Part shown: positions 10,064 through 40,188 of the stretch, piece after piece
Layout: every line of letters begins with the position of its first letter
Position numbering within the stretch: the first letter of the stretch is position 1
NCBI GenBank assembly: GCA_050084515.1
Contig: CM114271.1
Span: forward strand, 11,408,001-11,472,000
From: Blasia pusilla
Taxonomy: Eukaryota
Direction of reading: 5' to 3'
DNA: 64,000 nt
Made by a program: the position numbers and the translations under genes
The notes under the pieces: model-generated
Databases searched by the model: none
Told to the model about the DNA's origin: nothing
The model's input: only the letters and a program-made list of their open reading frames with translations

Positions 10064-10806
10064 TGTCGTGCGAATACACATCGCTGCCAACATACATCGG
10101 CTGTCATGCACACACATGTCTAAGATCCATCTAGCTATGAATCCTAACATCTCTATACATGAACGATTGGACAACCCCAATATAAAGTTGAATATGCATT
10201 GTAAGCTCTGATGAAATTTGCAATCAACCGTGCTTCATCCAAACAACCATACTCATGATTTAGATACGCACTGGTGTAACAGCAAGAGAAAGTATACACA
10301 AGGATTCCCAAATGTGTGATCTCCTTATTGATCACTCCTAGCCCACCCTTCAAGAGAGAATTCAGGCTCAATACATGCACGTTGCAGTGTATCACGAATC
10401 CCAACAAGGGTCTGCAATCCTAAGGAGATGAGCTCCAAATGAGACTCATCCGAGGTATACCCCCCTGGGCAACCCGATGGGTAACCTATACACACAAGTC
10501 ACCTCCCTCCTAGTAGATCACTACCAACCTGTAGAACACCCATACTAGCTCCCTAACAACTACACATGTGGTCCCCTCATGAGATCAACTACCATCTAAC
10601 CCACGACCCTATATGTCCAAGTGGAGCCATACATGGCTAGGAAGTTCAACCTCTCCAAGGTTGCCACTCCTCATAAAGGGAAGGGTGACCTACACTCGTA
10701 GGTCACCTCCTAAGAGCAGGTCATATATGACCTCTCAAAATAGGGAAGTACAAGACCCCTCTAAGGCCTCAATACTATCTCACCCTACATCTCATCTACC
10801 ATGATA
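10064..10806 (-). repeat. 3' LTR (~743 bp) of the DNMT-Ty3 element
   Basis: Starts TGTCGTG exactly where Helitron homology ends, and ends CATGATA (probably a decayed CATGACA). The left end resembles the solo LTR at 16719. Confidence 0.65.
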
Positions 10807-11399: not shown

Positions 11400-14100
11400 G
11401 AATAGTGCATCTTGCCATCACATCCAATATTCTCGGCGCTGACTGCTATACGTAGACATAATTACTAGGATGGAATCATCGAATCCTTGATCGATAGCCT
11501 CCTCCACGCATAGTCACGTACATAAGAGTATCGCGATGCTTAGCGATAGCCAGGTTCTCAAACGCCATAAGCATGACTCTCTGAAAGAGCTAAGACCGCT
11601 AAGAACATGCTCATACCCATACGTCTGGATCGATGAGGTCAAGTACCTCAACCACATCTCATCGAATCAACGCCAGTAACTCTGGCTCTCTCCCATAGAG
11701 CAAGAAATACGGTGAAAATGATGCCAAGGATGCCTTCTGACTAAAGCGGTAACTCATCGCTAACCACCACAATTGTACTGTAGTCCATACTTGCGCAATC
11801 CTCTCTTCACCGTCTGCACAACTCTCTCTGCCAAACCATCTGCCTTCAGATGATCTCGAGAAGTCATACAATTATCTATCAGTGCCTAATCACACAAGGC
11901 CTGAAAGTCACATCTAAACTCAGTACCCTGGTCTGTCAACACCACTGCTGGTGTGCCAAAATGACTAAGCACTCTATCAAGAAATGCATAAGCCGCTCCC
12001 TCACTCGACCTATCTGGCAACGCTACCAACCCAATCCACTTGGAGAAGTGCTCCACCATGATCAACACGTACTGACTATGGCGTCCCGTCAATGGTAAAG
12101 GCCGTGCAAAGTATAAACTCCAGAGATACCCTAATCCCATGATCGGTAAAGGATACAAGTGTGGTGCTAGAGCATTGAATGATACCCGCACCCTATCACA
12201 TACACTGCATCTAGGTACAAATTGCTGAACATCAGTTTGCATACCACGCCACCAATACTGAATCTCAATCAAGCTATAAGTACGCTGGACTCCAAAATGC
12301 CCTAACTCCCTGTGAGCTTGTCTCACAACTTGTGCTCGCTGCGAAAGATGCGGCACCCTCCGCACTTGTCCATCCTCCCAAACTCGAAGCACATGCGTCC
12401 CCTCCCACCTGAACCTCCTGGCTTGCTGTAGGACTCGATCCCGCTCTCTAGCACCCACCATGCTCGCTAAGACACCAGTGCGTAGGTACTCCAAGACCAT
12501 CTCATCATCGTGGATATCTCCAATCCCTGTTAACTCCTCACTAGCATCTAGATATGAGGACTCACCATCCAACCTCCCTCTTGGAGTGGATGCCTCATGC
12601 TAACCTAACATAGCCAACAAAGACAAATAGGTAGATGCGTGCCAACTTGACACCATCTCCTCATCACTCTCACCATGCCACCGCGCTCCAGTCGCATTGC
12701 TCTGGATCGTGCATGGGTTACGGCTCAACCCGTCCGCATCCTAGTTCAGATGTCATGGGCGATGGACAACTTGAAAATCATACTCCTGCAATAGGAATGA
12801 TCATCTGGCAAGCTTCCCTGTAAGCATGTTAGACTCCATCAACCATCTAAGTGGTTGATGATCAGTGATGAGCGTGAAAGGGTTCGTGAACAAATAATAT
12901 CTGAAACGTGTCACTTTCCACACTCCAGCTAAGTACTCCCCCTCATAGGAACTGTACTTTGCCTCCACAGTGTTGTTCAAGCGGCTCACATACTCCACTA
13001 CGAACTCCTTCCCCTCATCATCTCTGTGAGTGAGCACTGCTCCTAACCCCAACATACTCCAGTCCGTATGTAACTTGAACGGACGACCATGCATACGTCT
13101 CCTCAAAATGGGTGAGGATTTCAACCTATCCTTGAGCTCTTGAAATGCTCGCTCCTAATCATCACCCCAAAACCACTCCTGGTCCAACCTAGTCAGCAAA
13201 GTCAGTGCCTTTGCAATCGCACTAAAGCCCTTCACGTACCGTCGATAGTAGTTCGCCAATCCCATGAAAGCTCGAACTCGACTCACATCTGTAGGGTGGG
13301 GAATGCGCGCTATGGCCTCCACCTTTGTCTGCTGAACTCCAATACCCCATGGATAAATGGCGTGTCCAAGGTACTCGACCTTGTCATGGAAGAACCTGCA
13401 CTTGCCAGGATGTAGCTTCATCCCATATAACTGCAATCGTCAAAACATCTCCTCTAGATGTCTCTCATGCTCCTCAATCGTGGCACTGAAGACGATAATG
13501 TCATCGACGTTAAATCTTGCATAATCCAAACCAGCCAAAATCCTATCCATAACTCGATGAAAACCCGCAGGGGCGTTCTTCAACCCAAATGGTAAGAATC
13601 GCCACTAGTACAAACTATCCTTCCCGAAAGGATCTATCCCCCAAAATGTTGTCTTCTCCCTATCCTCCACTCAGATGGGCAATTGATGATAGCCAGCACA
13701 GAGATCCAAACAACTAATGATCCTTCCATGCCCTACTACATCAGAGATCTCCTCAGGAGTAGGCATAGCATAGCGATTGGCCTTCGTATGCTGATTGATA
13801 GGACGGTAATCCCCACACATCCACCTATTGGTCCACTGGCCATGCATGTCCTTCTTTGCTGGCATAATTGTGGCAAATGCATACTCTCTAAGCAATCTCT
13901 CCACCAGTCCAGCGTCAGCCAAGTCTCGACTCCTCTGAATCAAGGCTCGCTCCATGTCAGAATACTTGTAGGATTGTTGGAAGATAGGAGTATCACTATC
14001 CAACTTGATTCAAATACCTGGACCCTTCAGCATACCCAAGTCGTGCATACTATATGCAAAACAGTCCTTGAATCTCCACAAGAATTGCAACACTCATCTT
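11400..14100 (-). pseudogene. Ty3/gypsy RT - RNase H - integrase (frameshifted, with stops)
   Basis: ORF fragments 13671-14003, 13155-13436, 12801-13124, 11886-12572 and 11659-11871 carry canonical Ty3 pol motifs. Confidence 0.93.
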
Positions 14101-14282: not shown

Positions 14283-15430
14283 CTATCTGTGCTCTCGTGA
14301 CATATCCCATGAAGTCCATGGATGCCTCTCCATCACCATCGCGCCCCTAGCCAGTGTCTCACCCGTCCCGATAGACGCTATGCCGCAAAAAGGACGTAAT
14401 GTCACAGACACCTCTCGCATCCGTCGTCGCTCAGCCAAACCAAGACTAAAAATCCAAGTAAGATAGTTCAAGTCCATAGCCTGACCCAATAGATGTCTAC
14501 GCGATGCCTCTCCCATCATAGGCACCATAGAGAACCCAATAGCTCGCTCACGCTCATTGGCATTGGGCTCCACTAGTGTACATGCCTACTCATCCCATAT
14601 CATGCCTCCCTGACAAAAAGCATGAGATGATGGAAAACTCACCAACATAGGCAATATTGCCAGCCGCAGGCCCATCCGATTGGCCACTGCCAACGGTGGT
14701 ACATAATCACCAGTAACAACCTGAGATCGCCGCTTTGGATCCAAGATCGCATCCACTATAAGTAGTGATGGTATCTGGACTCCATCATAAGCCCGCCTTA
14801 GCAACTCGGATGGTAAAAGGTTCGTCCACCATAATCGTGGATAGTGTGCATGCGATCCAACACTCGCCGCATCCAACATCACCGCCGGTCCTATCCACGA
14901 CCGCACCTGATGTACACTTGCCATCACTCAAGCTCAAGTGTTACTTAACAATGGGACGTTCTCCAAAATGTAGGCTGGAGAACATCGTTGGGTAGTCTGC
15001 AAGTGACGAAGAACTCGTAGCATCTTCCAAAACATGGCTGACCTCGGGTCCTGCAAACCAAGTCCCCGACCCGCCAAAGAATGACCCTGACATGGCCACC
15101 TTGTCACCACCAAGTGTATCGAACCAACCCTATCCAGATGTGGTGCCCCCAACAACGAAATGTTGGTCGGTAATACATGCTGATATCCTCTCACTGTAGA
15201 CATTGGCAATAATTGAGGATATTGTTGGACTAGTCTCGACACATGATGTAATGAGACTCTACGTGTAGTCTCATCTCTCTCAACATACAAGTACTGATGT
15301 ACTTATACTCGGCCTGCATCACTACAACTAATGCTGTAGTAATTCCTCCAAAGAGATCTAGTATACATACACCCTCCTTGGGATACTGCCACACAATCGG
15401 TGTGGTGCCCAAGGGTGTCAACGTCTCCAC
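14283..15430 (-). pseudogene. C5 cytosine DNA methyltransferase domain (DNMT3/DRM-like, unpermuted) inside the pol polyprotein
   Basis: Motif I 'ILDLFGG' (15344-15361), II 'YVERDE', IV 'WPCQG.S.AG' (15087-15098), VI 'YILENV' (~14955), VIII 'PRLWWTNL', IX 'ERERAIGF', X 'LLGQAMD'. Confidence 0.9.
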
Positions 15431-17216: not shown

Positions 17217-18111
17217 CAATGGACCTATCCTCAACCTCATATGACACCGTGGGACAAAGTTACACTCAAGATAGTCCGCTGGCTCCTACACCCTATCCAT
17301 TATAGATCTCGGCCTATCGGCTATTTAGATGTGAAACCCATACCTCCTAGATCTCTCGCCATATCTTAGGGCTGAGCAGATCCGGAAGTCAACGCGCCCC
17401 ATGCACCTGATATAGATGCTTGTTGGGTCGTCATAGCTTGAAGGCGTTGCTCCAACAGAGCAATCCTCACCAAAGCTGCCTCTGATGCAAGTGCTGCACT
17501 CGCTCTAGCAGGTGGTGGGGTCCTGCCTCCATCACATCCTCGAACTCCTACACCTTGTCCTCTACCACCTCCAAGTCCTCGACCTCCCTCTAGGCGCAGC
17601 TTGGGGTGGAGATCCAAACATCTCTCACGTGTGTGCCCATATCTCCGGCAATGATCACACTGAGGTAAGGGTGGCCTTCTCAGGGTCGCTTCATATATAG
17701 CTGATGGTGTTGCCTGCACTCCACTCTATTGTCTACAATCTCGCTGACGATATGATCCTCCACACTTCCAACAAGAAATACCTAAGCCATGCTGCCTAGC
17801 GTATGACTGAACTAGTCATGGTCTTGGCTCCGGGTATCCTCCCGTAGCCCTCGGTTCCATGACTCTATCTTGAGTAGTGCGGTACGACATTGATGGAGAC
17901 ACCGTCACTCATGTCTTCTCCCTTGAAGATGACACGTCTGTCATAAAAAATCTCTCCTCAAGTATGTTGTGCTCAATCCGCTCCGCCAAAAAAAATACAG
18001 ACTTGAGAGTAGGCGAACCAACATGTAAGAGAGTTGCATCTTGCACTCTCTTCCGCAACTCGCAGTCTAGCATCGCATACCACAACTGAACCGCTTGCGC
18101 CTCCATCACAC

Positions 18112-18864
18112 GGGGGGCTGGTATTCTGGCAGGAGAGAGGAAGAGAGGAGAGTCTCTCTTCAAAAAAAAGGCACAAAAGGGAAAAAAAACTGAAACTCTC
18201 TTCAAAAAATATGAAGATTATGGAAAATAAGTGAGTAATTTTTTTGGAGATTTTTTTTGAAGAGAGGAAACTTAGTGCAACCCGTCAGAATCCGACGGGT
18301 TGCAATTTTTTGGTTTTTTTTTTTTGGCTTAAGGAAAATTTTTCATTTTTTGGGGTTTTTTCAACACTTGCAACCCGTCGGAGTCCAACGGGTTGCTTTC
18401 TAGGCATCATGGCGACCTGTCAGACTCCGAAAGGTTGCTTTTTGGCCTCAAAAGCAACCCGTCGGAGTCCAACGGGTTGCAAACGTTAAAAAAACCCCAA
18501 AAAATGAAATTTTTTCCTTAACCATTTATAAAAAAACCAAAAAAAGTTGCAACTCGTCGGATTTCTGACGGGTTGAAAAGGTAAAAAAATTTAGAAAAAA
18601 AACAATTTCAAATTTTTGTTTCACCACCAAATTTTTTTGGAAAAAATTTGACTTTTCAACTTGTCAAAACTTTCCTCTCTCCAACCTGTCGGAAACTCTC
18701 TTCAACCTGTCGGAAACTCTCTTCAAACCAAAAGAGCCCTAGGGGTTGCCAATATCTTCCTCTCTCCTCTCTCCTCTCTCCTCTCTTCTCTCTTCTCTCT
18801 TCTCTCTTCTCTCTTCCTCTCTCCTCTCTTCCTCTCTTCTTCTCTTCCTCTCCTCTTACCGCTC
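18112..18864. mobile_element. Non-autonomous 753-bp derivative of the MULE family, inserted in Ty3 gag
   Basis: 11-bp TSD CTCCATCACAC (18101-18111 and 18865-18875). Has both ends of the large element and about five 27-bp palindromes. Removing it restores gag 'LITETQGVMEAQAVQLWY'. Confidence 0.88.
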
Positions 18865-19976
18865 CTCCATCACACCCTGAGTTTCCGTGATCAACCGTCG
18901 GAGCCGTGCATAGGCCTCTCAAAGACTCTCTCCCGCTCTCCGTTGAAACTCATGAATCGACTTCAGCTTGTCAGTCCTCACCCCTTGATAGTTCCTCCCC
19001 AACTCTTGGAAGAACTCAACCAATGGGTTGAATGCGGGTGTACTCGGCTGATCACACTCGTAAGACTCGGGTCGACAACTCCTCCAAGTGTCTCCTTTGT
19101 GCGGTTAGTGAGTGCTACTACAGCCGCCACATCATACATTGCATGCCTTGTGAAGGACACATATCATGGAGACCAAAATAGTATCCACGCCTCGATCTCC
19201 GCCTCATGGAGAATCCAAAACTAGTGGTAATCATCCATGGGAGGGCCCTCTAGATGCTGAAAAAGTCCCTTCCACGCCATAAAGGGGTCAAATCTCTGTT
19301 GGCTCCACATCCTTTGTGCATCATACCAACTATCAAAATCCTCCATAAAATCATCCGACTTGATGGTTCCCACCATGCTTGAGAACCGTCAGGGTCTCTT
19401 GGTAGATCCATATGTATCGCAATCATCCATATCCCACAACAACGGTGTGGCGACACTTCGTGGCCTCTCGGGTAACTCAAAATTTGCTGACATCACCTTT
19501 GGAGCAACTACAACTAGCGGATGAGGTGGTCGCTTGTGTGGAAACCCTCGATACCTATCCCCACTCCATGTAAATCCTCCGCCACTTCTACCACTACCAC
19601 ACTCCCCAATACTCTGTGGATGCACCATGGTGAAACCTGCAAACTACTATGACTCACTCCTGAGCCACTATCTCTGCACTATACAATGCCCAAACTATGG
19701 ACAAGCCCCCACTTATCTCACTTGAGATCAACACTCGACAAATAGCCCGCACACTAAGTCACTCCCAACTAGTGTGATATACATCCATCCCACAAAGCTC
19801 TCTACAATAGTCGCGGTAGTGGCGTGCACTCACCAACGCACTAATCCACGATGTATGTCACCCAAAAATCACCACTCAAACATCTCCATTAGCAGCAAGG
19901 TAAGTGAATAAATTCCCATATGCGCAACATCTAGCCATCACTTCCTTGTGGGTGTGTTGGTAACACAACATGCAAA

Positions 19977-20035: not shown

Positions 20036-20464
20036 TATGCTCAACTAGATCAGCACCAGCTTGCCAAGTCTTGAGGTGCGGTAAGAGGAGAGGAAGAGAG
20101 GAGAGAGGAGAGAGGAAACTACCTTCAACCGAAATAGATACTTTTTTTTAAGAGTTTCTGTTGGGTTGAAGAGAGGAAACTTTTTGTGTGAATTTTTTTG
20201 CACTTTTTTGTTTAGTTATTAAGCAGTCTCGCAGTTTTTTTTTTCTCTTCCATATTTTGGCAACCCATCTGAGTCCGACCGGTTGCAAATTGCACAAAAT
20301 ATACAAAACTAAAAAATTAGTGGAATCATAAGTGTGGAACCAATCACTTTTTCTATCCAAGATCTGGAAACAATCTACCATTTGCCTTGGGCTGAATAGA
20401 GTTCAAGCTAAAAGTGGAGGTTCTTGAAAAATGAAAGTACAATCTAAAACCTCATTTTGCATCC

Positions 20465-23400
20465 TCAAAGTGGTTTGTTTAAAATACTTCGCACTTCTTT
20501 GAGGGACAAAATTGGTTGGTGGATTCCTACTCCTACCTCCGACTCTCTTAAAAATACCAGCAACACATAGTACATGTGCTTATAAGGGAAATACCTTTTG
20601 CCACTTGTCTCTCTTTGGACAAAGTCATCACATGAACATGTGGGAAAGCAACAGATGTGCACCACATACACCCATGTGACACTTGAATTTACAGTGTTGT
20701 TCTTGACCCAATACATCCTTCCTATTCCATTGCCACTCAAGACATCTTTCGTGGCGATGATCTCCATTTTTGCCTCCCGAGCTGATGCAATTCACTTTGC
20801 TCTCTCCACCGTTGGCCTACACATTCTGTTTCTCTTCACCCCCTTCTCTTCTAGACTCAAACAAAAATAATGGATTGAGATCATCCACCTTCTCTGGTTA
20901 CATGTTGACATCAATCTTGGGTTGAATACAAATTCGAAGCTCTTTGTAATGCAAACATGCTCCAAACTTCCCCCATCTACGAGTCTGAAACCGACACTTG
21001 TAAGATTGTCCACTTCGTCTTGAGTGCAGTTCGTACCCGCGTCGATGGGCCAAATCGTGGGGATATTCCCCGGAGCTCCAATGGCAGCCGGATAAGACTT
21101 CTAGAAAGCGCAAGATTCATTTGGGCAGAAGAAGTACTTCAATTGATCCCCGGTCCTCGTGAAACGATCAAAGGTTTTGAGTCCCCAAAACCCAGGCAGT
21201 GGTCGTCCAGTCCTTGTACATTTCTTATTTAGGAAAGTATCGCATGCTCTCCTAATGCCATCAGATTCTGCCCTGCAGGTGGGTCCACGTCCTGGGTTGC
21301 TCCGAGATATATGCCACCGTTTTAGGTTGCAATCCACCTCCACTACCGGAATCCCATATTTTTGAACCACTCCAATGACAGGAAGTTGCGAACTTCCAGC
21401 AACGGAGGGCTTTTGAAATTAGACATTCACTGATTTTGGAGAAGGGTCTCCATCACGGATTTGGGACGGGTCCGGGGTCCCCGAATACCTGGGTGGCATA
21501 ATTTCCTCATCCAAACCAATCACCGGATTTGTTCCTCGATGCTGCCTCTTCACCTGCTTGAAGTCAAGATACTTATCTGGTCTCCACGAGTCTTGCTTGG
21601 ACTCCTCTACCACCATCTGTATGGGATGTCTTGAAACCCACCCATGAATATCCCCACCAATGTGTACGTCTTGCTCAAGGGGAGTTCTAGCTACGCATCC
21701 ATTGAAGGCTTCCACATAGAGTTTTTCATCACCAGATCTCACAGCCGCCCTGACATAGAGCTCGTAGATCGACGACCCCCTTCCTTTTGTTATGCCTTTT
21801 GTGAGGAAGATATGGGATGCTGCAGACTGTAGCATTGCTCTTGCGTGGTCTTGTTGGCATGCCTCCACAAGTGAAATTCGTTGGCATGCTTGTGACGACC
21901 TCTAGGAAGAATGAACACTTTTTGCTCCACTTGTGTTGGGGCAGAGGGCATTTTCATTCCCAGCAACGACGGCAATGTTAGAAGGGAACGAAAATAACTC
22001 AGGAGTCAAAGAAATAAGCTACCTGTCGGAACCAGACGGGTTGCAAGGCCAAGGAATCCCATGAACAACTCTTCGACCCGTCGGGTCCCGACGTGTTGCA
22101 ACCCTAAACCCACCTACTGCAACCCGTCGGATTCAGACGGGTTGCAAGAACCTGTGGCCACTCTGGAAGATCCAAGTGCAAGTCATCCGAAATCCATCCG
22201 GGTCGAACTATTTGCAGGCCTTGTATACATGCAACTTGCATACTTGTCTACAGGTTGCACCAAAATTCTGGATGCAACCCGTCGGTTTCCGTCGGGTTGC
22301 ACACTCGGGCAACCCTTTGCATCTGACAACTTCCTTGGTTTCTTCGGTTTGAAATCCCTATAGTTCCCATGCTTCTCAACTTGAGCTACAACTTTACAAA
22401 CAATTCTCAACGTGAGCTTGACAAGAAAAAATAGTGAACTCACATGCCGCATGAAGTTTCCCCATTGTCTCATACGTACAGTCCACCAACTCAACCAAGA
22501 GCACAACTCTTTGTACTTCCCCTCAATCGCATGCTTCCTCCACCACCCATGAAGTTCTTCTTGGCATTCCATGGCATGTTTCAAGGTTTTGCTGTTCTTG
22601 CAACGTTGGAGTAGAGTGACATGCTCTGTCCTGTTATTCTCCTTGATGCAAGATTTGGTGTACCGGGTCACAGACTGTTGCCAATGGAAAGCATCTGACC
22701 TTTCCCTCTCCGGTTGAACCTCTCCACCCCAGAACACTTCCCAGATAGCAATCCACCCAGGTTGTGCATTTTCCGCTATGAACCCATAAATTTCTGGAGG
22801 TGGCCTTTTGTTTTCCTTCACCACCTCCAATAAGGGTAACCAGCACATCTTCAAATTGCCAACGTCTTCTGCCTTTACTTCACAGACAAATATAGTTTTG
22901 AGTCCCTTCTCCACATGGTCATAAACGTGAGCACCCATTGTCAACCATCCGTTCAAAGACTCAGAGCAAATATCAAAGCTTACCCAGTGCCAGTAAAGAT
23001 CTTCCCCTTCCCTCATTCGATCTATAAGATCGAGGCCACTCGACAGACCTGTGGTTGACATTTTGAAGACATAGGCCCTGGATCCCTCGCCTCCTTGGCC
23101 CATCAACTGCCATCTTTGAATGAATGGAAATCTAGAGTTGGCCTTGATTCTGGCGATGGCATCCATTTCGGCCGTCTTTCCATCTAGAACCCGTATTTGA
23201 TGCAGCAAATTCCCGAAGCACTCAAGATCAGCGAGAAATGCGAGATTTTCCCAGAGTTGTTTCTCCTCAGCCGCCGTGATCTTGCCCTGTCTAGGGATTC
23301 CAAGCAATTGTTCACAAATTTGTGATGCTGTTGTGAGCTTGATCACTCCGGGTTTTGAACCCGGAGAGCTTCTGTAGACCTTGGCAACTTTCTTCGCCAC

Positions 23401-24450
23401 ATCCTCCTTGATGTGTCTGTGAATTGCATCGGTCACAGAATGAGAGTGGGAGCCAACATGAACTGCCAGCCTTGTGTACTCTGACGTGGAGCCCAAGTCG
23501 TGGACAATGAAAAATATGTATGGAGGACACGCTCCAACGTAGAAGGGCAATGCCTGACAATGAGGACATCGATGGCCTCCCGGCGGTATGGTGGCACCGA
23601 CTCGTATGGAGTTTTGCATTCTTGGGGGAATTGCGATGTATTGACTCGCCCGTTGCGCCTGGATACGAGCATGCTGGACTTCTACACTCCAAGGCTCCAA
23701 TGCATTGGCGGCGGAGACAATCCAAGGACCATCGGAATTGAAGCACTAGTCCGTTGAAGCCTGCACCATCGATGACAATCAAACTTTCATCCATACCCTT
23801 CAGCGCCCTCCATCTTTCTTTTGAGCAAGAGCAGCAAGTGGAGGCAACTCAAAAATGCAATTACCATCGTGACGTGGGCGGCGGCAAATGTCGACAAGAA
23901 TGTGCTTGAACATTTTCAAGGCTAGAGACGAAAGCAAACTATTGCCTGATACTCGCAAGAGGAACGAGTAGGCGGACAGAGGGCCCAGTTGGTGTCCGAC
24001 AGATCCACTGAGGTTGATAATATCCGGAATCTCTTCAGGAAGAACAACATTATTACGAGCGTGTGAAGTTGGAGTCGAAGCCGGATCTACTGAGCTGGGA
24101 GTTGCAAACGTAGAGCTCGAAGCACTAGGAAATTCTCGACCGTCTTCTTGGGAAACAGATGAATTGAGGGGCAAGCCGTAAACTCTGTATTGACCATTTG
24201 TTAGAGGTAGGAGATTCCATACTTTACGGTCTACATTCATTGGATGGACTGTCTCACCTATTATGTCCTCCGTACCGTCCATCCTAATATCCTTGGATAA
24301 AAAGATGGTTCCAATTTGGAGAAGAAATCGAACAGAGAGAAAATTTTCATCCACTGCTATGAAAGACTTAAGAGCTTGCGGTCGAACAATTTTTGATTGA
24401 GGAAGGGCCGCTAGATGACTGCCACAAGTGAGCTTCATATAATTATCCAT
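20465..24450 (-). pseudogene. MULE-type transposase (GCM/WRKY-like Zn domain, DDE core, SWIM); frameshifted; one intron ~22443-21970
   Basis: Zn region 'RRQCIGALECRSPAC...CPHCQ...C...VHVGSHSH'. Core 'WVSFDIC', 'GF(I/M)A(E/D)NAQ', and 'DAFHWQQ' (MULE C/DxxH motif). SWIM 'PTCSCDDF...PYKHMYYV'. TATA at 24502-24508. Confidence 0.82.
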
Positions 24451-24599
24451 TCCTAGAAATTTCCAACGGGAGGAGAGTGAGAATGAGAATGAGAATTTTT
24501 AATTTATAGTGAATAGGAAATCAGATTCTCTTGACATAATTTTACTGACAAGATGAAGTTTGGTAGGTGAAATTGTCTGACACAATGGATTCAATTCTG

Positions 24600-25495
24600 T
24601 TGCAACCTGTCGAAGTCAAGTGGGTTAGAGGATTTGGGAAGCAGAGACGTGGGTTGCGAAGCACACATCATTTTGTTGGAACCCGTCGGAGTCCGTTGGG
24701 TTGGAACCCCCTTCTTGCCGACCGAAGATCTTTTGAGGTGATTTTGCTAGCATCAAACACAAGATATCGCTTGTTTTTGCGGGATTGTCCAACTCAGGGT
24801 ATATTTTGTGACCCGTCGGATTGCAATGGGTTTCCTCGGAACAATACCTTGTCACATTGTTTCCCAAGGGATAACCTGTCGATAATCGACGGGTTGCCCT
24901 GGTAACTCAACTATTAACCCAAGCTAAGCGAAGCCTGCAACCTGTCGGCTTCGGACGGGTTGCATGCTTCTGCCTTACCTTGAAACGCAAACATTATCAC
25001 AGATGGCAACCCGTCCCTCTCCGACGAGTTGCTCGGATACCGCGCCTTCTTGCCCAAAGACGGCGGAGGCGCGCAACCCGTCGGCATCAGACGGGTTGCC
25101 CAATTATCTCATAGTGTAACACTTACATGAAGGAAGCGTGCAAACCGTCTGTTTCCGACGAGTTCCGCGGATGCCGCACTCTCTTGCCCAAAGACGGCGA
25201 GGCGTGCAACCCGTCGCCCTCCCACGGGTTGCACAAGGGCCTCGCCTTGTTTTGCTTACATGAAGGAAGCATGCAACCTGTCGGCCTCTGACAATTTGCG
25301 TGGGAAGCCCGCATTGTTATCCCTTGACGAGGGAAGTGTGCAACCCAACGGTCTTCGACGGGTTGCGCGGGTACCTCCCGTTCTTGTCCAAAGACTGCGG
25401 AGGAGCGCAACCTGTCGGTCTCCGACGGGTTGCCACGAGGACGGATGCCTTGAACCCTCGGGAAGCATGCAACCCGTGGAAGCCGTTGGGTTGTT
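24600..25495. repeat. Array of ~13 copies of the 27-bp palindrome GCAACCCGTCGGA-N-TCCGACGGGTTGC between the two divergent genes
   Basis: Copies at about 24936, 25007, 25073, 25139, 25205, 25272, 25340, 25407 and 25468 (period ~66 bp), plus more upstream. Confidence 0.9.
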
Positions 25496-25583
25496 GTTTT
25501 TCACGTCTAGACTTCCGTAACGGCTGGCACATCGACTTCGGAAGGACGATGCGACCCAACGGTCAGCCCAACAGCTAGAAAAG

Positions 25584-25591
25584 TATAAATA
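25584..25591 (+). promoter_or_regulatory. TATA box of the ParB-MTase-like gene
   Basis: TATAAATA upstream of the ORF, conserved in inverted copy 2 (~47184-47191). Confidence 0.55.
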
Positions 25592-25693
25592 GGGGAGAAA
25601 TCGCTCATTTCTGGTTTCTCACTTCGCGATCTCTATTGCTCTCTCGCGCAGCAGCTGACCAGATACCAAGGGGCGCTTCACACGGCGACTCAT

Positions 25694-25830
25694 CGCGAGA
25701 CGATACAAGCGAACGATTGCGAGACGATACGAGCGAACAATCGCAAGACGATTCGAGCGAACGATCGCGAGACGGTTCGAGCGAACGATCGCGAGACGGT
25801 TCGAACGAACGATCACGAGATGATTCGAGC
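25694..25830. repeat. 24-bp tandem repeat (~5.5 units, GCGAGACGGTTCGAGCGAACGATC) in the putative 5' UTR
   Basis: Directly visible; fewer units in copy 2 (~47005-47070). Confidence 0.85.
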
Positions 25831-25918
25831 TACCCATGAAGGCGACTCATCTCGACATCAGCAAGGCGACTGATCAAGCGATTCATCGTGGACATAGGTG
25901 GAGGCATTTTTGGGAAAA

Positions 25919-28900
25919 ATGACAAGGAAAAAATCTCAAGCAAACAAGTCTGGGAGCTTCACTCCCAAGTCCATGAGGACTCCTGCGTCACCATCTCCAG
26001 GGCCTCGTTCGGCCAATGAGATAAGGCAGCAAGAAATCGAGGAGCGGGAAAGGGAAGCGGAGATGCACAACCAGGAGCTTCTTGCAAAACGTGTACAGGA
26101 GGCGCTCGATAAACAGAGTGCAGAGGCTGAGGCGTCGCAGGCCTTGAAGAAAAGGATCGCCGACGAAAAGCGTTTGAACGCGTCGGTGAGGAGAGCAGAA
26201 TTGGCTAAAGAGAGGAGGGAGAAAGAAATAGCCATTGAAGAAAGCCCTGCCTGTCCAACCAAAAGTGTTGAGATGCGGGAAATGTCCCCGATGAAGTCCG
26301 GGGACACAATCAATAAAGCGGAAACGGCCGAAGTTCAAATCATGGACGATGAGGTCATGAGGGCCGCCAGCGTGGAGATGGTGGACATCGCCGAAGAAGC
26401 AGAAGAGCGGTCATCCTCGTCTCTAAGCCCGGCGGAAGAAATCAACCTCTATCGGATTGACGAGTTTCCAGTGGACTTGCCAGCTGCTCTCTCAGAGCAG
26501 TTGGCTGGTCAAGAAACCGACTCAATCTTCGAGCGGGTAAGAGAGGATCTGTGTTTTTTGAATTATGTGAAGGCCCATCTTGCAATTCATTGGCAATTCA
26601 GTGTAGCTTACTGATCTTGTCCCCATTGTGACAGGTGGTAAAGCAGATGGCACTGATGGAGGGCCACAACGCCCCAATAATTCCACTCTGCCGATTGCGG
26701 ACAATGGAGTACGTCCGTATGAAATTCAGTCTGATGAGGATATTGCGAAGCTCAAACAATCGGCGGCGACAGCATCCTACATCGACAGATTCCCTCTGTT
26801 CTATCTTCACCCTTACGATAACCATGGAACCCAAGCGCTCGTTACGGATGAGGACTTGGAATTGCTCAACACATTCTGGAGGATGAGAGATCAGGAATTC
26901 AGAAGGCAAGTAGAGGGAACGGAATTCAGTTGGATGAGAAATCTGCATTTCTTCATCTCGGATGGAAATCACAGGTTCATGGCGTGGAAAAAGTTTGCAG
27001 AGGAGCGCCCAAACTCCTTGGAGGCACATTTTTGCGTGAAGGCAGTGGTGCTTTATCCATACCCTCATCACATGGCGACGGTGGAGATGGCCATGCATGC
27101 CATGAACACATAAGTTTCTTCTTGTTGCAAACCGTCGGACTCCGACAAGTTGTTTGAGTCACCACTGTTTTTGGGATGTTTTTGGCTGAACGCAACTCGT
27201 CGGAGTCCGACGAGTTGCTCTATTGATCAATGGATTAGGATGTTTTTGGTCGAAAGCAACTCGTCGGAGTCCGACGAGTTGTTCGACTGACCATAGGACT
27301 CGACAGGCCGCATTCTTTGGATGTATTTTGAAGAAAGAAACTCGTCGGAGTCCGACGAGTTGCTCGAATCGCCGCATTTTTTGGATGTTTTTTGAAGAAA
27401 GCAACTCGTCGGACTCCGATGAGTTGTTCGACTGACCACAGGTATAGTATGTTTTTGGCCCAAAGCAACTCGTCGAAGTCCGACAAGTTGCTCGACCGGC
27501 CGCATTCTTTGGATGTATTTTGAAGAAAGCAACTCGTCGGACTCCGACGAGTTGCTCGACTCGCCGCATTTTTTGGATGTTTTTTGAAGAAAGCAACTGG
27601 TCGGACTCCGACGGGTTGCTTGACTTGAAGCTTTTTTGGAGGTTTTTTGATGTTTTTGGCCGAAAGCAACTCGTTGGAGTCCGACACGTTGCATTCAGAA
27701 GTTGGAAGCTGCATTTTTCGCGTCAAATTGCAGCTTACATTGAAATTGCGCAACCTGTCGGACTCTAACGGGTTGCTAAGTTCACTTTTGATACGGACTA
27801 TTTGACAACCCGTCGGAGTCCGACGTGTTGAAACCAGGCAATCACAAATCCGAATGTAATCCGTCGGACTCCGATGGGTTGTATAATTTAGCTCGTTGCT
27901 AGAATCCGACCTTGAGCTGTGAAGACCTGTCGAAGTCCGACGGGTTGCACGAACCCATGTACCTTACAAAATTTCTTATATTGAGTTTGGATGTGCAGGA
28001 TTGTATCGGAGGGGAATGTCACCCACCACTGGATCCAGGATTGCGATCAAGTGAAGAAAGTGCTAACAACGCACCCGGCAGAGTACAAGGGGTTCTTGGG
28101 CGACGCCCTGGTAAATGAGATGTTGGCAAAGGGTGCACAAATAAAAAACAATACTTGGGCAAATAAATTTATTTCCCAAGATGCAGCCATCACAATCCTT
28201 TGCTGGTCGAAGATACAGGCCCCCAAGAAGAGCGCTGCATTGGAGCTAGAGCGGAGGGAGAAAGTATCTGTGTCTGAGCGTGCAAAATTCATCCAAGCTG
28301 CAGTATCTGCAGCTACAAAGTACACGGCAAGCAAGATGCAGCGCTACATCGCCATTCTCAACCCCGAACTTGGTCTGGATTTTTACAAGGAGCTGAAGGC
28401 GATAATCAAGCGCTAGCGGAAAAGGGATGAAGATCTGCAAGGTCGGATTGGAGAGAAAGTGTCTCTCGATTGCGTGCATCGATTTGCCTTGTCTGGAATA
28501 AGCGAATTTAGGAGAATCCGACTGATGAAAATCAGTATCGAGGGCACAGAGGCCCAAAAGAAGGCGGCACACCATCCTCCAGGTGTCTTTGATCCAGTGA
28601 TCTCCCACTGGCTCTACAATGGTCGTTCTGGGACGCGTTGCCGCTTATCAAGAAGTCCATGCTAGACAGTCTCCAAGCGGAGCTAAAAAGAATAGAGCCC
28701 ATTCCGGAGGAAGCAAACCTGGAGAGTGCTGTAGATTTCGAACTTTGGCTCGATGACATCCGGGACAAGCCCATCAAAAACCCAGGTTTCAAGACGATGT
28801 TCAAGGATTGCATCCTCCCTCAGGCAGACCTTGATGAAGAAATCGAGGGGAAAATAGGGATTTTGCAAAGAAGAAGCGAGATCTTCAGGAGCAGGCGGCC

Positions 28901-30797
28901 GATGCAGTTCGACTAAGAGCTGCCCAACATATGGCGTTCAGGTACCTCGTCCATTATAAGAATGCAGATACCTGGGGAAAAATACCGGGAGCCTGCAAAT
29001 TGTGGGCTTCTCCGCCTGATGGAGAGACATTCTCCATGTACGACACGGAGATGGCTCAGCGCATGTCCGATTGGGAGGTGGAGAATTGCCCGATTTGGCT
29101 AGACTTCAATGACCCTGAGGACATTACCAAGAAAGATTTACGCGTGCTTTATGATGTAGTGGCCGCAGGACGGAACGACATCCCTAATTTTGTGCAGCCT
29201 GAAGACTTTTTCGAAGGAGATGCGGAAGAGCAAGCCCTCAAGATAGCGGAGTTGGCTTCCAAGGTCCACATAGCCAAAGACAAATCTACAACGGGTCTCA
29301 AAGGCAAGGCGAGGGGATCAAAGAATTCCAAGGCAGAGTCCTCCCAAAGAGAGGCTGAAGATTCAAGGCCAGAGCTGGAATCGTCCGGGCGAGCGGGGAG
29401 AGAGGGTCGGACCAGGTCCTCTGTGAAAAAAACCCCACCAGAGTCTGAGGTCATAGAGACCCCAACAAGCCGACCGTAGACTCGGGAGAAGCGGAAGCAA
29501 GAGGCGCCAGGGTTGTCCCAAGGAGAATACAGTCCATCATCCTTGGGAAGACATAGAGAAACAACAACCCGGACAAGCGTCCTCCTTCAGTTCACGAATT
29601 TACTGGATGAGCTTAAAAGTTTCAGTTCTCAAGCGTCGACACCTACCATCAACAAATTGACAACGCTAGGACGGAAGCTTCAATGAAACGGGCACACTCC
29701 TTGGACGGTCAATGGAGTGGTCGAAGAGGTGGCGGTGGATCTATTGATCGCTGATTTTCCCTCAAGGTTGCGATTGTGGGACGAGAATCCGTCGAACATG
29801 GCCCAGACTAGAATGTTCCCCTTTCTTATGACCAGATCGCGCTCCTGTTTTCCTTTGCAGACGCTTATCTGAGTACAAGGGATGCTTCTTAGTTTTTACT
29901 AGAGGGAGCGAGGATGAGCTTTTCAACCTCCAGTGCGTCAAGAGGTCGCTGAAGTGGAGGACGGCGCAATCGTAGATCATCAAGAACGAGTACCCACTCC
30001 GATCCGCGACGAGTCAAATTCGGGTAAGGCTCTATTTCTGTCTCCAGATTGTATTTCTATGATGTGTTGTTTTTGTCCGTGAGCAACCCGTCGCCTTCCA
30101 ACGGGTTGGTCATGGACAAAAACAACCAGTCGGACTCCGACAAGTTGCTCCAATGTTAGTATTATAAAGAAGTTCTCTTGAGTTAAGCGAAGTTCTTTGG
30201 TGACGTGTTGCACATTATGTCACCATACTGAGAGTAGACCAGTGGCCAAGTTGCTGACATTGTTTCCAATGTGCTTATTTACAGATGGACCACTCCTATG
30301 TTTATTGCTTCGTTCGGCCCGAGCACAACTTCCAGGTGTTTAAGATCCAGGATCATGTGGATCCATGCTCCGATGGGTATAGCTTAGATAGTTTATACAA
30401 TTCCCCCCCGGGAATTTTCATGCAAGATGGTACCCCACTACCTGGAGGAAGGGAAAAGTTGCTAGCCCTGATGCAAACGCTCATCGAGCTCTGCTCAAGG
30501 CCGGGTGACTTGGTGTTCGACTTAGTGGGCCTTTCAAGGGCGAGTATCAAAGGCGTTTGGCAGAGTGGCAAGAACATTCTCTGCCTCGAGGGAAGGCAGG
30601 AACTGTTTGACCTTTGCAAGGAGGCAAAGGCACATTACGACATGCAAGTTGAGGCGTACAACTCTCCACCGAAGTCGAGAGCTCCGGTTCCAAACCCACA
30701 ATTGGTAGTGACACCATCGTCACTTCCAACGATTCCGAAAATCGGGAGGGCAAGGCCGAAAGTAATTTTGCAAGAGCTCTCGGACGATGATGAGTGA
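25919..30797 (+). pseudogene. Transposon accessory gene: coiled coil + ParB/Srx-like domain + C-terminal beta-class amino-methyltransferase-like domain (~1200 aa). Exons ~25919-26536, 26635-27109, 27999-30023, 30285-30797
   Basis: ParB-like 'IPLCRL..EYVR(E)IQSDEDIAKLKQS...FPLFYL...FFISDGNHRFMAW' (DGNHR at 26961-26975). MTase-like motif IV 'VDLLIAD(F/L)PS' (29735-29764) and 'EKLLALMQTLIELCSRPGDLVFDLVGLS.ASI...SGKNILCLEGRQELFDLCK'. Contains stops and frameshifts; the intron 2 donor is GT>AT here but intact in copy 2. Confidence 0.75.
27125..27950. repeat. Array of ~13 copies of the 27-bp palindrome filling intron 2 of the ParB-MTase-like gene
   Basis: Variant GCAACTCGTCGGA(G/C)TCCGACGAGTTGC, mostly every ~63-66 bp. 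Confidence 0.9.
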
Positions 30798-32994
30798 GTT
30801 CAAAGAAGTCAAGGACCCAGCTTGACTACAGCGTTTGGAGTAGGGATTTATTTGATGATGAGGCAAAAGATTTCATAGAATAGATCAAAAGTACAGTTCC
30901 AAGCTTCTTTCGGATGTAATAAAGGACAATATTTTTTCGAACGATGGTGGTGTTTCTAAAAGTTTGCTGAATATCTTTTATGTCTTTTCGAATGTGATCA
31001 TCTATGTACTCCGAGGACTTCTATTTTGCAACCTGTCGGATTTCCACCGCTTGCAACTTTTCACTTTTTGACCACTGCACCTTTTTAACCACTTCCAAGC
31101 AACCTGTCGGATTCCGACAGGTTGGCTGCGTGAGTGATCGGACTCTTTCCCTGTTGATCCAACTTAAGAGGTATTCTGGCAGGCTTCTTCACTTTGGCAC
31201 CTTCCCCTAGTATCGTCAAACAAGGCGTAGGCTTCTTCTCTTCTCTCAGACGTATTGGATTCCTACTACCTGTGGGATTGCCATCATGGTATTACCAAGG
31301 ACGGAGCACATATTGATACTGGATGGGTGTCACATTGCAGAGCATACAAGATATACTGCCAAGGAAGGCGGTGGGACTCAAATCAGGTTACATGGGACCA
31401 TTATGGTGTACCTAGGGGGGCGCCAAGGCTCTCGAATTCGCCAATATTTTCGATCCCCGTCTACAATCGGCCAGAGGAGCCACTTGTATCCCAGGACATT
31501 CCTTTTGTACAAGAACCTAGGAGAGTTAGGAGTAAATTTGTAGATGACCAAGCTGAAGAAATCATAGACTAGATCAAATGTATATTTCCGAGGTTCCTTC
31601 AGAGGTAATAAAGGACGAGATTTGTTCAACCGATAATGGTGTTTGTAAAAGTTTGCTGGAAATTTCTTTTGGACTTGTGGATTGTGTTATCTTAGCTACT
31701 CATAATTACAATTTTGCAACCCGTATGATTCCGACAGGTTGCAACTTTTCGCTTTTTGCCCACTGCAACTTTTTAGCCATTTCTAGGCAAGCCATTGGCT
31801 GCTTGAGTGATCGGACTCTTTCCCTGTGAGACCAACTTCTGACACATTGTGGCGGGCTTCTTAACTTTTGGCTCGTTCCCCTACATTCGTCAAACCAGTT
31901 GTAGGCTTCTTTTCTTGTCTAAGATGTGCAGGATTCCTACTACCTATCGGATTGCCATTTCGGATTCCCAACCTGTTGGATTTTCGTGGGTGCAGGGTTG
32001 AAGGGAATCACTTCTCAAAATCTTTCCTTTCTTATGGTGAGCTTGCTTGCAATGGGTGCAAGCCATCTGATTCCGATGTGTTGCAAGAGTTGCAACCTCT
32101 AAAATTCCAATGGATTGCAAGAGTTGCAACCTGTAAAATTTCCGACGGGTTGGGAGGGGTGCAGCTTCTCGGTTTCTCAGATTTAGGATTTGAATGAAGG
32201 GACATTAGTTCCTCTTTACTCCAGACAGCTAACAATCTTTTGGTTCAATTATTGTCTCATATGTTCACATTTCACAAAGTTGGTCTTGAGCAGACACCAC
32301 TCATAACCAACAGAAAGTTGGTTATGAGGCAATTCAGGGGAGGCCATGATGCAGGGAACAATCCCTGCAAAAAGAGATGTTGGCATCGTACCGATGCGCA
32401 TTCGGGTGGTCCTCCAACAAAAATACCCATGGGCACTGCTTATTGTAGACCGAGACAGGCAATGTAAAGAAACTTAGGCCCACATGGAGAGTGATGGAAA
32501 AATGTTTGTAGTGGTCTTATGATGTCTACTTTTTTTTCACCCCCTGGAAAAAGGAGGTTTCTTTAGGCCCGAATGTGGACCACTACCTACTTTCTTCTAA
32601 AGATTTCATGAATTTGAAAGCAAACAAAAATTTGAAATATATCAAAAAGTTTTGAAGAGAGGAGGCAGATTTGGCCCTTTTTTTTTAAGAGAGACTCTCC
32701 TATCTTCCTCTCTTCCTCTCCTCTCTTACTCTCTCCTACCAGAATACCAGCCCCCCCCAAGTCCTTGCGCCCGCCACCAAGCTGGCCTGCTGGCGCTAGC
32801 TTAGGGTTTAAGGTTTAGGGCGTGTGAAGCGTTGAACTGGATCATCACCATCTTGCCAAGTCCTTGCGCCTTCAACGCCTCTCCTCCTCCACTCACACCT
32901 TCAACACCTCTCTTGCCTCGAAGCCTCGAGAATACCCATGATTCACCCGCCTCACCTCTTGCTCACTTCTTCGCTGCGCCAAACTCACATGTGA

Positions 32995-39167: not shown

Positions 39168-40188
39168 GGGGGCTAGTATTCTGGCAGGAGAGAGGAAGAG
39201 AGGAGAGGAAGAGAGGAAGAGAGGAGAGTCTCTCTTCAAAAAAAAGGGCAGAATCCGCCTCCTCTCTTCAAAAATTTTTGACATATTTGAAATTTTTGTT
39301 TGCTTTAAAATGCAAGAAATCTTTAGAAGAGAGTAGCAAGTGGACCACATTCGGCCTAAAGTAACCTCTTTTTTCTAGGGGGCAAAAAACAAGTAGACAT
39401 CATAAGACTACTACAAACATTCTTCCATCACTCTCCATGTGAGCCTAAGTTTCTTCACATTGCCTGTCTCAGTCTACAATAAGTTGTGCCCAGGGGTATT
39501 TTTAACTACTCTAACTATGGTCTCAATAGACTACGGTGCCCTTCAGGGTTTAACTTCTGGCAATATGTGGTTGACATTATGGATTGACATCTCTTCTTGC
39601 AAAAGGCATAAAATACTCCTCAATAAGGGGCAAAAGAAAGGCAAAAGGAAATGCCTTTAAATGATTCTTGACTCTTCTTGCAGAAGGCATCAATACTCAT
39701 CCATAAGGGGGTTTTCCACAACAAAACAAATTGCTCATCACTCATGGTAGCCTTAGACTTTCATTACATCATTTGATGATGTGGGCTCTTGAATGGGTGC
39801 ACAAAATATACCATGGACTGCTGTGCGTTTGAAAACTTGGTTTCACCATTCTCTCTGCCACTGAGAAATGTAAACACACAAGACGAAAATTGAACCAAAA
39901 GATTGATAGCTGTCTAGAGTAAAGAGAAACTGATCAAAAAGAAAACGTGATCAGACGAGACGACAATTGAAGCAAAAGATATTTAGTTGTTAGGAGTAAA
40001 GAGGAACTGATGCACCCATGTCCCTTTATTCAGATTCTAAATCTGAGAATCCGAGAAGCTGCACCCCTCCCAACCCGTCGGAATTCAACAGGTTGCAACT
40101 CTTGCAACCCGTCGGAATCGGATGGGTTGCACCCCTTGCAAGCAAACTCACCATAATAAAAGAGGGATTTTGAGAAGTGATTCCATTC
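39168..40188. mobile_element. MULE-family terminal fragment (GGGGGCT.GTATTCTGGCAGG end), interrupted by a second copy at 40189
   Basis: Reverse complement of ~32000-32240 and ~32440-32756 of copy 1. Confidence 0.85.

Follow-up and report, generated by a model that had tools for sequence, protein, structure and literature searches.

In a 64,000-nucleotide (nt) stretch of Blasia pusilla DNA, analyzed over its full length and hereafter called the window, a 27-bp palindrome, GCAACCCGTCGGA-N-TCCGACGGGTTGC, recurs in the non-coding DNA of one apparently Mutator-like transposon family. A long dyad that is conserved, confined to the family, switched to another sequence in a related locus, and absent from the element ends is most simply accounted for by a dimeric binder encoded by the element itself. 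We therefore prefer, tentatively, to read the palindromes as dyad-symmetric sites for an element-encoded DNA-binding protein, the likelier candidate being the product of an accessory gene (gene 2) that lies divergent from the transposase gene (gene 1).

Palindromic sites in the window

At up to 3 mismatches, the palindrome matched the window 44 times and was absent from all of 100 dinucleotide-preserving shuffles; three copies, starting at 45232, 45598, and 45705, are perfect. A threshold of ≤8/26 mismatches gave 93 sites, whereas 30 Markov simulations averaged 0.17 and never exceeded 1, and the count of 93 bears out the roughly 90 to 100 copies that the initial annotation had estimated by eye. 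Half-sites at ≤2 mismatches numbered 148, versus 0.75 expected. When plus- and minus-strand half-sites were paired, 48 pairs fell at the sole offset that yields a 1-nt center, and every other offset accounted for 3 or fewer; since the 48 pairs share one offset, the palindrome is the unit. In 61% of sites, complementarity extends outward by one more pair (T...A or A...T), and the stem folded as RNA reaches −22.5 kcal/mol. The center of the palindrome reads GANTC, with a chance of ~1 in 16 for such a center; GANTC is the target of CcrM/HinfI-type N6_N4 methyltransferases.

Self-comparison and reading of the ends showed that the window holds four members of one repeat family. Copy A (20074-32757, plus strand) is an element of ~12.7 kb with 37 palindrome sites. 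Copy B (39168-51845, minus strand) is inverted relative to copy A, is truncated at 51845, and carries 41 sites, while fragment C (53358-56171, plus strand) comprises part of the transposase gene and its intron array, with 11 degenerate sites at 55444-56033. The fourth member, a 753-bp non-autonomous element (18112-18864), has 4 sites (18277, 18370, 18412, and 18454), a fifth with a 2-nt center at 18549, and half-sites at 18681 and 18702, which agrees with the about five sites previously ascribed to this derivative. No site was found in the remaining 35,071 bp of the window, and none of the 93 overlaps coding sequence in any copy, with coding intervals as far as they are definable (46% of copy A). 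The palindrome is thus, as first proposed, a discrete dyad-symmetric unit restricted to the non-coding DNA of a single transposon family (93/93 sites). As the sites come in arrays, the test of exon avoidance involves about seven independent units, and avoidance of exons is also expected for any repeat that breaks a reading frame.

Copy A carries sites in 6 of its 9 non-coding segments, including every segment of at least 428 bp. The densities are 14.6 per kb in gene-2 intron 2 (13 sites), 9.3 per kb in the transposase intron (4 sites), 7.9 per kb between the two genes (12 sites), 2.6 per kb both in a later gene-2 intron (2 sites) and in the 3' region (5 sites), and 2.5 per kb near the left end (1 site). 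Two central arrays account for 25 of the 37 sites, and the dense arrays lie 4.5 to 7.9 kb inside the element. The palindrome had also been viewed as a required cis element for transposition; that idea was not borne out: the last 186 and 639 bp of copy A are siteless, and site density peaks in the center.

The array in the transposase intron of copy A spans 22018-22300 (four palindromes at spacings of 55, 46, and 155 bp), that between the divergent genes spans 24602-25433 (12 palindromes, period of 66 to 67 bp), and that in gene-2 intron 2 spans 27127-27948 (13 palindromes, period of 64 bp). Scattered palindromes occur at 30083 and 30122 in a gene-2 intron and at 31028, 31099, 31716, 32058, and 32092, 3' of gene 2. 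Copy B has arrays at 40070-40130, 41783-41858, 42649-43023, 45232-45922 (intron 2), 47281-47940 (between the genes), and 50367-50640 (transposase intron). According to Tandem Repeats Finder (TRF), the true repeat unit of the between-genes array is 133 bp (133/129-bp unit), with two alternating spacer types, and the intron-2 array consists of 5.5 copies with 80% matches, most units carrying a T/A variant at position 6. Downstream of the between-genes array come TATAAATA, at ~25586, and then, at 25692-25830, a tandem repeat with a 24-bp unit, ATCGCGAGACGATTCGAGCGAACG (5.8 copies, 87% matches). This second, non-palindromic leader repeat stands between the TATAAATA box and the gene-2 start codon.

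Spacing is a property of each array. Among 77 gaps of ≤200 bp between sites, 31 measure 63 to 67 bp and 36 measure 60 to 69 bp; the remaining gaps range from 15 to 155 bp, mostly 34 to 57 bp. The 63- to 67-bp gaps come from two arrays, between the genes and in intron 2, each in copies A and B, and array-specific spacings of 67, 64, 52 to 64, 55, 46, 42, and 35 bp were found, with others of 46 to 57 bp or irregular. The ~63- to 67-bp phasing noted by the initial annotation therefore holds as the period of two arrays and fails as a general rule. Placement of the sites on one face of the DNA was likewise not borne out: 67 bp corresponds to 6.4 helical turns, and at 10.5 bp per turn the mean phase is 0.22 turn rather than 0 (Rayleigh R, 0.31). 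We rejected a universal helical phase on these grounds; the non-uniform phase reflects periods inherited through tandem duplication, with no common face.

Stop-free open reading frames (ORFs) of 129 to 242 amino acids (aa) cross the arrays, at 27235-27963 (minus strand, 242 aa), 47213-47782 (plus), and 25131-25520 (plus). Coding repeats were nonetheless rejected as an explanation, as the spacers are unconserved. Palindrome arrays of this kind give spurious long ORFs and could be misannotated as genes.

Conservation, turnover, and a related locus

In 7 of 7 arrays, pairwise identity within the array was higher among palindromes (0.69 to 0.87) than among spacers (0.16 to 0.62). The comparison of spacers with palindromes had been suggested as a check on plain minisatellite expansion, and palindromes so much better kept than their spacers exclude a plain minisatellite. 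Between copies A and B, which share 75 to 91% identity across aligned segments, palindrome columns are 88.8% identical (632/712), a figure that BLAST pairing of non-orthologous array sites can inflate, compared with 89.9% for coding DNA (4688/5215), 85.6% for other non-coding DNA (3580/4182), and 77.2% for array spacers (439/569). Departures from the consensus number 346; of the 210 that fall at the six CG/CHG positions, 145 are transitions. The palindromes are the most deamination-prone sequence around, yet they are better kept than the spacers.

Symmetry within the window is a separate matter. A compensatory change of both arms in the intron-2 array had been put forward as a sign of selection or conversion for symmetry, with CG/CHG deamination named as the competing explanation. 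We counted 276 one-sided arm changes and 22 complementary two-sided ones, the latter versus 15.1 expected with independent arms, and the excess comes wholly from position 6 (C>T with G>A), a deamination-prone CHG cytosine. The 10 T/A doubles at this position are found only in the intron-2 arrays of copy A (6) and copy B (4), which are related through tandem and element duplication, and the 19 one-sided variants are spread over other arrays. Stratified by array, complementary doubles number 20 versus 18.3 expected, and outside the intron arrays there are 0 in 68 sites. Compensatory evolution within the window was therefore rejected, since stratified two-sided changes match chance. The variant array is explained by one doubly mutated unit, amplified via the 64-bp tandem repeat, and the compensatory argument, with the variant confined to a single array lineage at a deamination-prone CHG site, is therefore not supported by the criterion first set for it.

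Evidence on symmetry came from outside the window. Metagenome contigs were scanned with a 3-sequence transposase alignment, which yielded 15 loci; the 27-mer itself had 0 exact matches in the scanned contigs. One locus, L001 (2,078 bp), encodes a transposase 66% identical to a relative (P0005) that in turn shares 39% identity with the transposase of the window. Between exons ending in ...WGNYIRLV and leading to ...NSTGAESVH, L001 carries three copies of ATTGCTAGCGCC|GGCGCTAGCAAT, centered at 1117, 1201, and 1291 (spacings of 84 and 90 bp), and at the middle site (~1171-1232) the arms are extended to 29 to 31 nt. This intron is homologous to the four-site transposase intron of copy A (21956-22383), which lies between ...WGNFMRHV and ...NTSGAKSVH. 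The L001 arms are unrelated in sequence to those of the window; the build is common to both, with arms of 12 to 14 nt, a center of 0 to 1 nt, and multiple copies per intron. Such a switch of both arms argues for selection on symmetry as well as on sequence, as would be expected of a reader co-evolving with its site. Judged from these sequences, symmetry does look selected at the level of the family, and the dimer binding site, among the readings first suggested for the palindrome, stays its best reading, with added support from the homologous L001 intron. In the other 14 loci (25 to 42% identity to the query), no recurrent palindrome and no gene-2 homologue (tblastn, E ≤ 0.1) was found; the longest of them, L004, L007, and L014, were also run through TRF. 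Loci with neither arrays nor gene 2 agree with a link between the two, but only weakly, given how distant they are and how insensitive tblastn is.

The arrays also turn over. We mapped ~1% of a whole-genome sequencing (WGS) run with the same species label on copy A; other copies, as seen in 99 reads, have an extra 35-bp unit at 22274-22308, and 205 bp (24692-24898) is missing from 14 reads. Per-strand depth was 3 to 20 over gene 2 and the arrays and up to 276 over the 3' half of gene 1 (20434-23471), and 9,254 of 9,413 reads were 95 to 99% alike. Depth and identity together indicate that the family is multi-copy and that the 3' part of the transposase gene greatly outnumbers the remainder. A gene-1 fragment has thus reached a much higher copy number than the full element, for instance, in pieces like fragment C. 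DNA joints at 22274/30082 (opposite strands) and at 30093>22274 (8 to 10 reads) were not used as evidence of rearrangements at palindromes, because their shorter side, 27 to 28 letters, is inseparable from ambiguous palindrome placement. Within the intron-2 array of copy B, 45284-45498 and 45704-45922 form a 215-bp inverted duplication (81% identity) centered on sites, and palindrome sites may nucleate template-switch or hairpin-mediated inversions.

These properties could also arise with no protein ligand, which we regard as rather unlikely. Hairpin- or cruciform-prone DNA would then be kept symmetric by slippage, template switching, and intra-strand repair or gene conversion, and the arrays would be a selfish or neutral palindromic minisatellite. 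Arrays do grow and shrink between copies, larger inverted duplications are centered on sites (the 215-bp duplication of copy B and the extended L001 arms), and the stem is stable. However, spacers are unrelated (down to 0.16) where the core is kept at 0.69 to 0.87, and slippage alone would copy the spacer too. Moreover, the remaining 35 kb of the window, other repeats included, contains no copy of the motif, and the same build with another sequence in the same L001 intron is hard to explain without a sequence-reading partner. Within the window, arm changes are overwhelmingly one-sided (276 versus 22), so ongoing arm-to-arm repair is not seen in these copies.

The transposase and the accessory gene

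Which protein would read the palindrome is a question for the two genes of the element. Gene 1 of copy A (20477-24498, minus strand; exons 22384-24399, 21683-21955, and 20477-21388, placed by tblastn of relatives) encodes a DDE transposase with a Cys/His-rich N-terminal part. Its product has two close relatives, at 39% and 37% identity, in a set of 5.8 billion proteins and 631 relatives, mostly fragments, in a HMMER library. No Pfam match (MULE, Transposase_mut, Plavaka, and KDZ included) was obtained for the window transposase, the 2 close relatives, or 20 longer relatives. An AlphaFold2 (AF2) model built from a 25-sequence alignment (mean pLDDT, 69; confident core, residues 110 to 430) has an RNase-H-like DDE core. 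Foldseek at E ≤ 1e-3 returned three matches, all to the IS256-family ISCth4 transposase (E, 4.7e-5), and VIA-align to ISCth4 gave Z scores of 7.9 and 7.5 over 166 to 169 residues with a high root mean square deviation of 11 to 13 Å; HIV/retroviral integrase cores scored Z 6 to 7, and Hermes scored 5.8.

The transposase motifs are WVSFD, GF(M/I)A(D/E)NA, and ER(S/x)(D/C)xFH(W/F). For the last of these, the window has ERSDAFHW against a family consensus of RERxCxFHW, in keeping with [C/D]xxH after the second Asp; at the third acidic motif, relatives have N.GAESVH (NGAESVH) and the window has a mutated SGAKSVH. The [C/D]xxH and third-acidic motifs reportedly define the Mutator superfamily (Hua-Van and Capy, 2008). 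The copy A transposase is defective, with K at the position of the catalytic Glu followed by a stop (SGAKSVHSS*), and at the second acidic position it carries E instead of the D found in relatives.

IS256 and Mutator transposases are kin, and target duplications in the Mutator superfamily are 9 to 11 bp. The 753-bp element, which has GA-rich imperfect terminal inverted repeats (TIRs), sits between two exact copies of CCATCACAC, a 9-bp target duplication, at 18103-18111 and 18865-18873. Copy A reads AGGTGCGGTAAGAGGAGAGG... at one end and ...CCAGAATACCAGCCCCCC at the other, and its duplication, CAAGTCTTG / CAAGTC(C)TTG, is imperfect by one base; both duplications are within the Mutator range. 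For comparison, 8 to 9 bp is the figure that a passage of PMC5499845 gives for the Mutator-like element (MULE) Muta1. An IS256-like fold in the model, together with the motifs and the 9-bp duplications, points to an element of the Mutator/IS256 group. The earlier label of MULE is thus reasonable and unproven: fold, motifs, and duplication speak for it, and the Pfam MULE match was not found.

The element ends are GA-rich and imperfectly inverted (GGGGGGCTGGTATTCTGGCAGGAGAGAGG... versus AGG(A/T)GCGGTAAGAGGAGAGG...). They share a G-rich start, GC(T)GGTA, and a GA-rich stretch of 30 to 40 bp and align only with indels; BLAST of the two ends gave no significant inverted match. In copy B, the terminal 335 to 357 bp is present twice, at 39168-39503 and 40189-40545, 1021 bp apart, and a segment homologous to 32081-32272 of copy A sits between the two end repeats. 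The double end represents duplication of the end itself or else nesting of a partial element. A 460-bp segment at 13610-14068 recurs in direct orientation at 56168-56622, following fragment C, with 72% identity, and may be another repeat family or a diverged part of the palindrome-bearing family.

The transposase itself may be the reader, although we judge this unlikely. The palindromes would then be its binding sites, subterminal or internal enhancers that aid the transposition complex and maybe take part in promoter autoregulation, on the model of Muta1, the TNPA sites of En/Spm, and the hexamers of Ac. The 753-bp element is largely made of sites (5 plus 2 half-sites), the palindrome co-varies with the transposase lineage (L001 differs in both), and the Cys/His-rich N-terminal part could bind DNA. 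In Muta1, more subterminal repeats bring more transposase binding and excision, as described in part of PMC5499845. Against such a role, the element ends are unrelated GA-rich sequence without the palindrome, and intron and between-gene arrays are misplaced for end synapsis. Palindromes come no closer to the two ends of copy A than 186 and 639 bp, with the dense arrays kilobases inside, whereas the Muta1 repeats, in the same portion of PMC5499845, lie within a 145-bp TIR.

Gene 2 of copy A (25919-30797, plus strand) comprises exon 1 (25919-26537), exon 2 (26635-27109), exon 3 (from 27999), and further coding blocks at 28838-29479 and 30258-30797. Intron 2 is 27110-27998: frames join across it, and its donor is a canonical GTAAGT in copy B and a mutated ATAAGT in copy A, where an in-frame TAA would be read if it were unspliced. 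The array that the initial annotation had assigned to an intron does lie within it. Exon 2 carries ...FFISDGNHRFMAW..., with a DGNHR motif. It matches Pfam DUF1015, a putative member of the ParB clan, at an E value of 7e-4 (19.1 bits, below the cut-off of 25.8), and its Atlas leads are ParB_N (11% of the members of the cluster), DUF6551, and DUF3723 clusters. Protein sequence searches gave no relatives of exon 2, and PHROGs, NCBIfam, and PADLOC gave no ParB-type match for gene 2. An AF2 prediction of exon 2 without an alignment had a pLDDT of 37 and an unusable fold.

For the block at 30258-30797, 28 of 30 Atlas hits are N6_N4_Mtase (score, 0.93; 173 to 178 shared features). Its residues 66 to 123 have weak but mutually consistent methyltransferase matches in Pfam (PF01555; E, 0.09), PHROGs (E, 0.0016, 0.0019, and 0.013), and PADLOC (E, 0.02 to 0.065). 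Comparison of exon 2 and the methyltransferase-like block with Protein Data Bank sequences gave nothing usable, with best E values of 0.49 and 0.083, the latter to a plant methyltransferase-like chain. By sequence, gene 2 seems to encode an accessory protein that combines a ParB-like part with an N6/N4 DNA-methyltransferase part.

In the reading that we prefer, a dimer of the element-encoded protein would sit on each 27-bp palindrome. Local tandem duplication of site and spacer would have multiplied the sites in each large non-coding stretch, namely, between the genes, in introns of both genes, and in the 3' region, and the resulting arrays would allow the element to gather many protein molecules on its own DNA. 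The purpose would likely be self-recognition, by control of the shared promoter region, by marks on the chromatin or DNA of the element that oppose host silencing, or both. The gene-2 product is the likelier of the two candidate proteins: ParB-family proteins bind clustered palindromes, and the sites are central and densest around and inside gene 2.

Several points weigh against this reading. Sites are also found in the transposase intron and in the 753-bp element, which lacks gene 2, a placement that fits any trans-acting protein, the transposase included. The L001 contig, at only ~2 kb, is too short to tell on gene 2. The ParB-like assignment is weak, consisting of one sub-threshold Pfam match and language-model leads. 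In the methyltransferase-like block, the glycine loop is degenerate (DLVGLS), and (D/N/S)PP(Y/F/W) was not found in copy A, where SPPD (28838-29479) and SPPG (30258-30797) occur without the aromatic residue; the enzyme may be inactive or misread. As copy A is a decayed copy, its missing catalytic motif does not settle the state of the family founder. Copies A and B are both dead, with stops and frameshifts in both genes of copy B. Finally, besides the inflation of palindrome identity mentioned above, homogenization by gene conversion could mimic selection.

A more specific proposal, which we hold to be doubtful, is parS-like self-marking. The arrays would load a ParB-like/methyltransferase fusion that writes a non-5mC mark, N6-methyladenine (6mA) or N4-methylcytosine (4mC), across the element, in opposition to host CG/CHG silencing, and protein and site would co-evolve so that a lineage marks only itself, L001 already having a switched site. 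The palindrome itself, with its GANTC center, could be the methylation target.

Least probable is that the arrays act as RNA, with hairpins or inverted halves feeding small-RNA pathways as trigger or decoy or affecting intron splicing. In three RNA-seq runs with the same species label, of which 6 to 12% each was read, depth was 3.1 to 6.7 over 27378-27811 and 0.9 to 1.5 over 26944-27377, on one strand (first mate, minus), and bins over 24340-26943 (between the genes, exons 1 and 2) had 0 reads. These reads come from another copy, one with its units arranged differently, because their joints carry foreign letters, and they show no more than transcription of some array somewhere. The 215-bp inverted duplication in the copy B intron array would also fold into a long hairpin. 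Nevertheless, this depth is tiny, a 12- to 13-bp stem is too short for Dicer-type processing, many sites lie between genes and in the 753-bp element, where no transcript was seen, and the one-sided decay has no G:U-preserving bias (8 T/C versus 10 C/T at position 6).

The rest of the window holds other features. An ORF fragment at 14934-15302 (minus strand), which matches PF00145 (C-5 cytosine DNA methylase; E, 3.2e-7, above the cut-off), lies ~2.3 kb from a Gypsy-type integrase fragment on the same strand (11886-12599; Integrase_H2C2 plus rve), and it may be retrotransposon-borne or a piece of a host DNA methyltransferase. Further content at 9459-10103 (minus), 59653-61541 (plus), and 2665-3111 (plus), all without the palindrome, includes a Helitron_like_N fragment (E, 1e-28), an EXS-family fragment, and weak gag/protease retroelement signals below the Pfam cut-offs (zinc knuckle and aspartyl protease).

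Known systems and implications

The design is known: it has been shown experimentally for VANC proteins and proposed for ParB-like accessory proteins. Passages of PMC5735166 describe VANC21 as binding motif arrays in the introns, intergenic DNA, and terminal non-coding DNA of the Mutator-type element VANDAL21 and as removing silencing marks from it, the arrays being dynamic tandem repeats whose units diverge together; VANC targets differ between related elements, according to parts of PMC5735166 and PMC10398659. The arrays of the window resemble these in their placement in introns and between genes, in evolving and turning over as tandem repeats, and in having a lineage-specific variant array. 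Unlike VANC, which has DUF1985/DUF287, gene 2 matches neither domain in Pfam, even with E values of up to 10 allowed for every gene-2 block, and the VANC motif is a 9-bp non-palindromic sequence (YAGTATTAY), in contrast to the 27-bp palindrome here.

Giant algal transposons offer a second comparison. As set out in portions of the accounts of these elements, ParB-like accessory genes occur in Plavaka (PAG3/PAG2, Bostrychia) and in Sola1-1_Ec32 (Ectocarpus) and join a ParB-like DNA-binding part with a DNA-modifying part, an N4C/N6A methyltransferase in Ectocarpus. In the red-algal Bostrychia Plavaka, tandem inverted-repeat arrays adjoin the ParB-like gene and are proposed there as its targets. 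Gene 2 of the window is likewise putatively ParB-like plus methyltransferase-like, with weak domain calls. The algal elements are EnSpm/Plavaka or Sola1, whereas the 9-bp duplication and IS256-like fold suggest a Mutator-like element here; in Bostrychia, moreover, the partner fused to the ParB-like part is a 2-oxoglutarate (2OG) oxygenase, with the methyltransferase encoded by a gene of its own. The algal inverted repeats and the 27-bp palindrome are likened here by description. Our literature search found no paper joining ParB, N6_N4_Mtase, and a eukaryotic transposon.

Transposons with many copies of a motif, retained in non-autonomous derivatives, are also known from En/Spm, with its tail-to-tail TNPA motif pairs, and from Ac and Muta1. 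Their repeats are ≤12 bp and lie in or beside the TIRs, in contrast to the motif-free ends and central arrays seen here. In the foldback-type MULE Muta1, a repeated short motif raises transposase binding and excision, as a section of PMC5499845 reports. Bacterial ParB-parS, as outlined in part of the Bostrychia preprint, has dimeric ParB binding clustered short palindromes and then accumulating on DNA. Clustered palindromes on the same element, 93 in the window, are the likeness; parS is ~16 bp rather than 27 bp, and the present element is a eukaryotic transposon without a partition ATPase.

What is new here is an example in a transposase family without a Pfam model, with a clear 27-bp site and a switch in a sister lineage. 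The palindrome arrays mark a transposase family that is invisible to Pfam models. If the preferred reading is true, they would provide a concrete site-protein pair for those transposon accessory proteins in which a ParB-like domain is fused or linked to a DNA-modifying enzyme, a class so far known from annotation only. The gene-2 protein should then bind the 27-mer, and the L001-type 24- to 28-mer should be bound by the protein of its own lineage and not by that of the window. Self-recognition through fast-evolving motif arrays, as in VANDAL/VANC, would thereby extend to an unrelated fold and to another transposon lineage.

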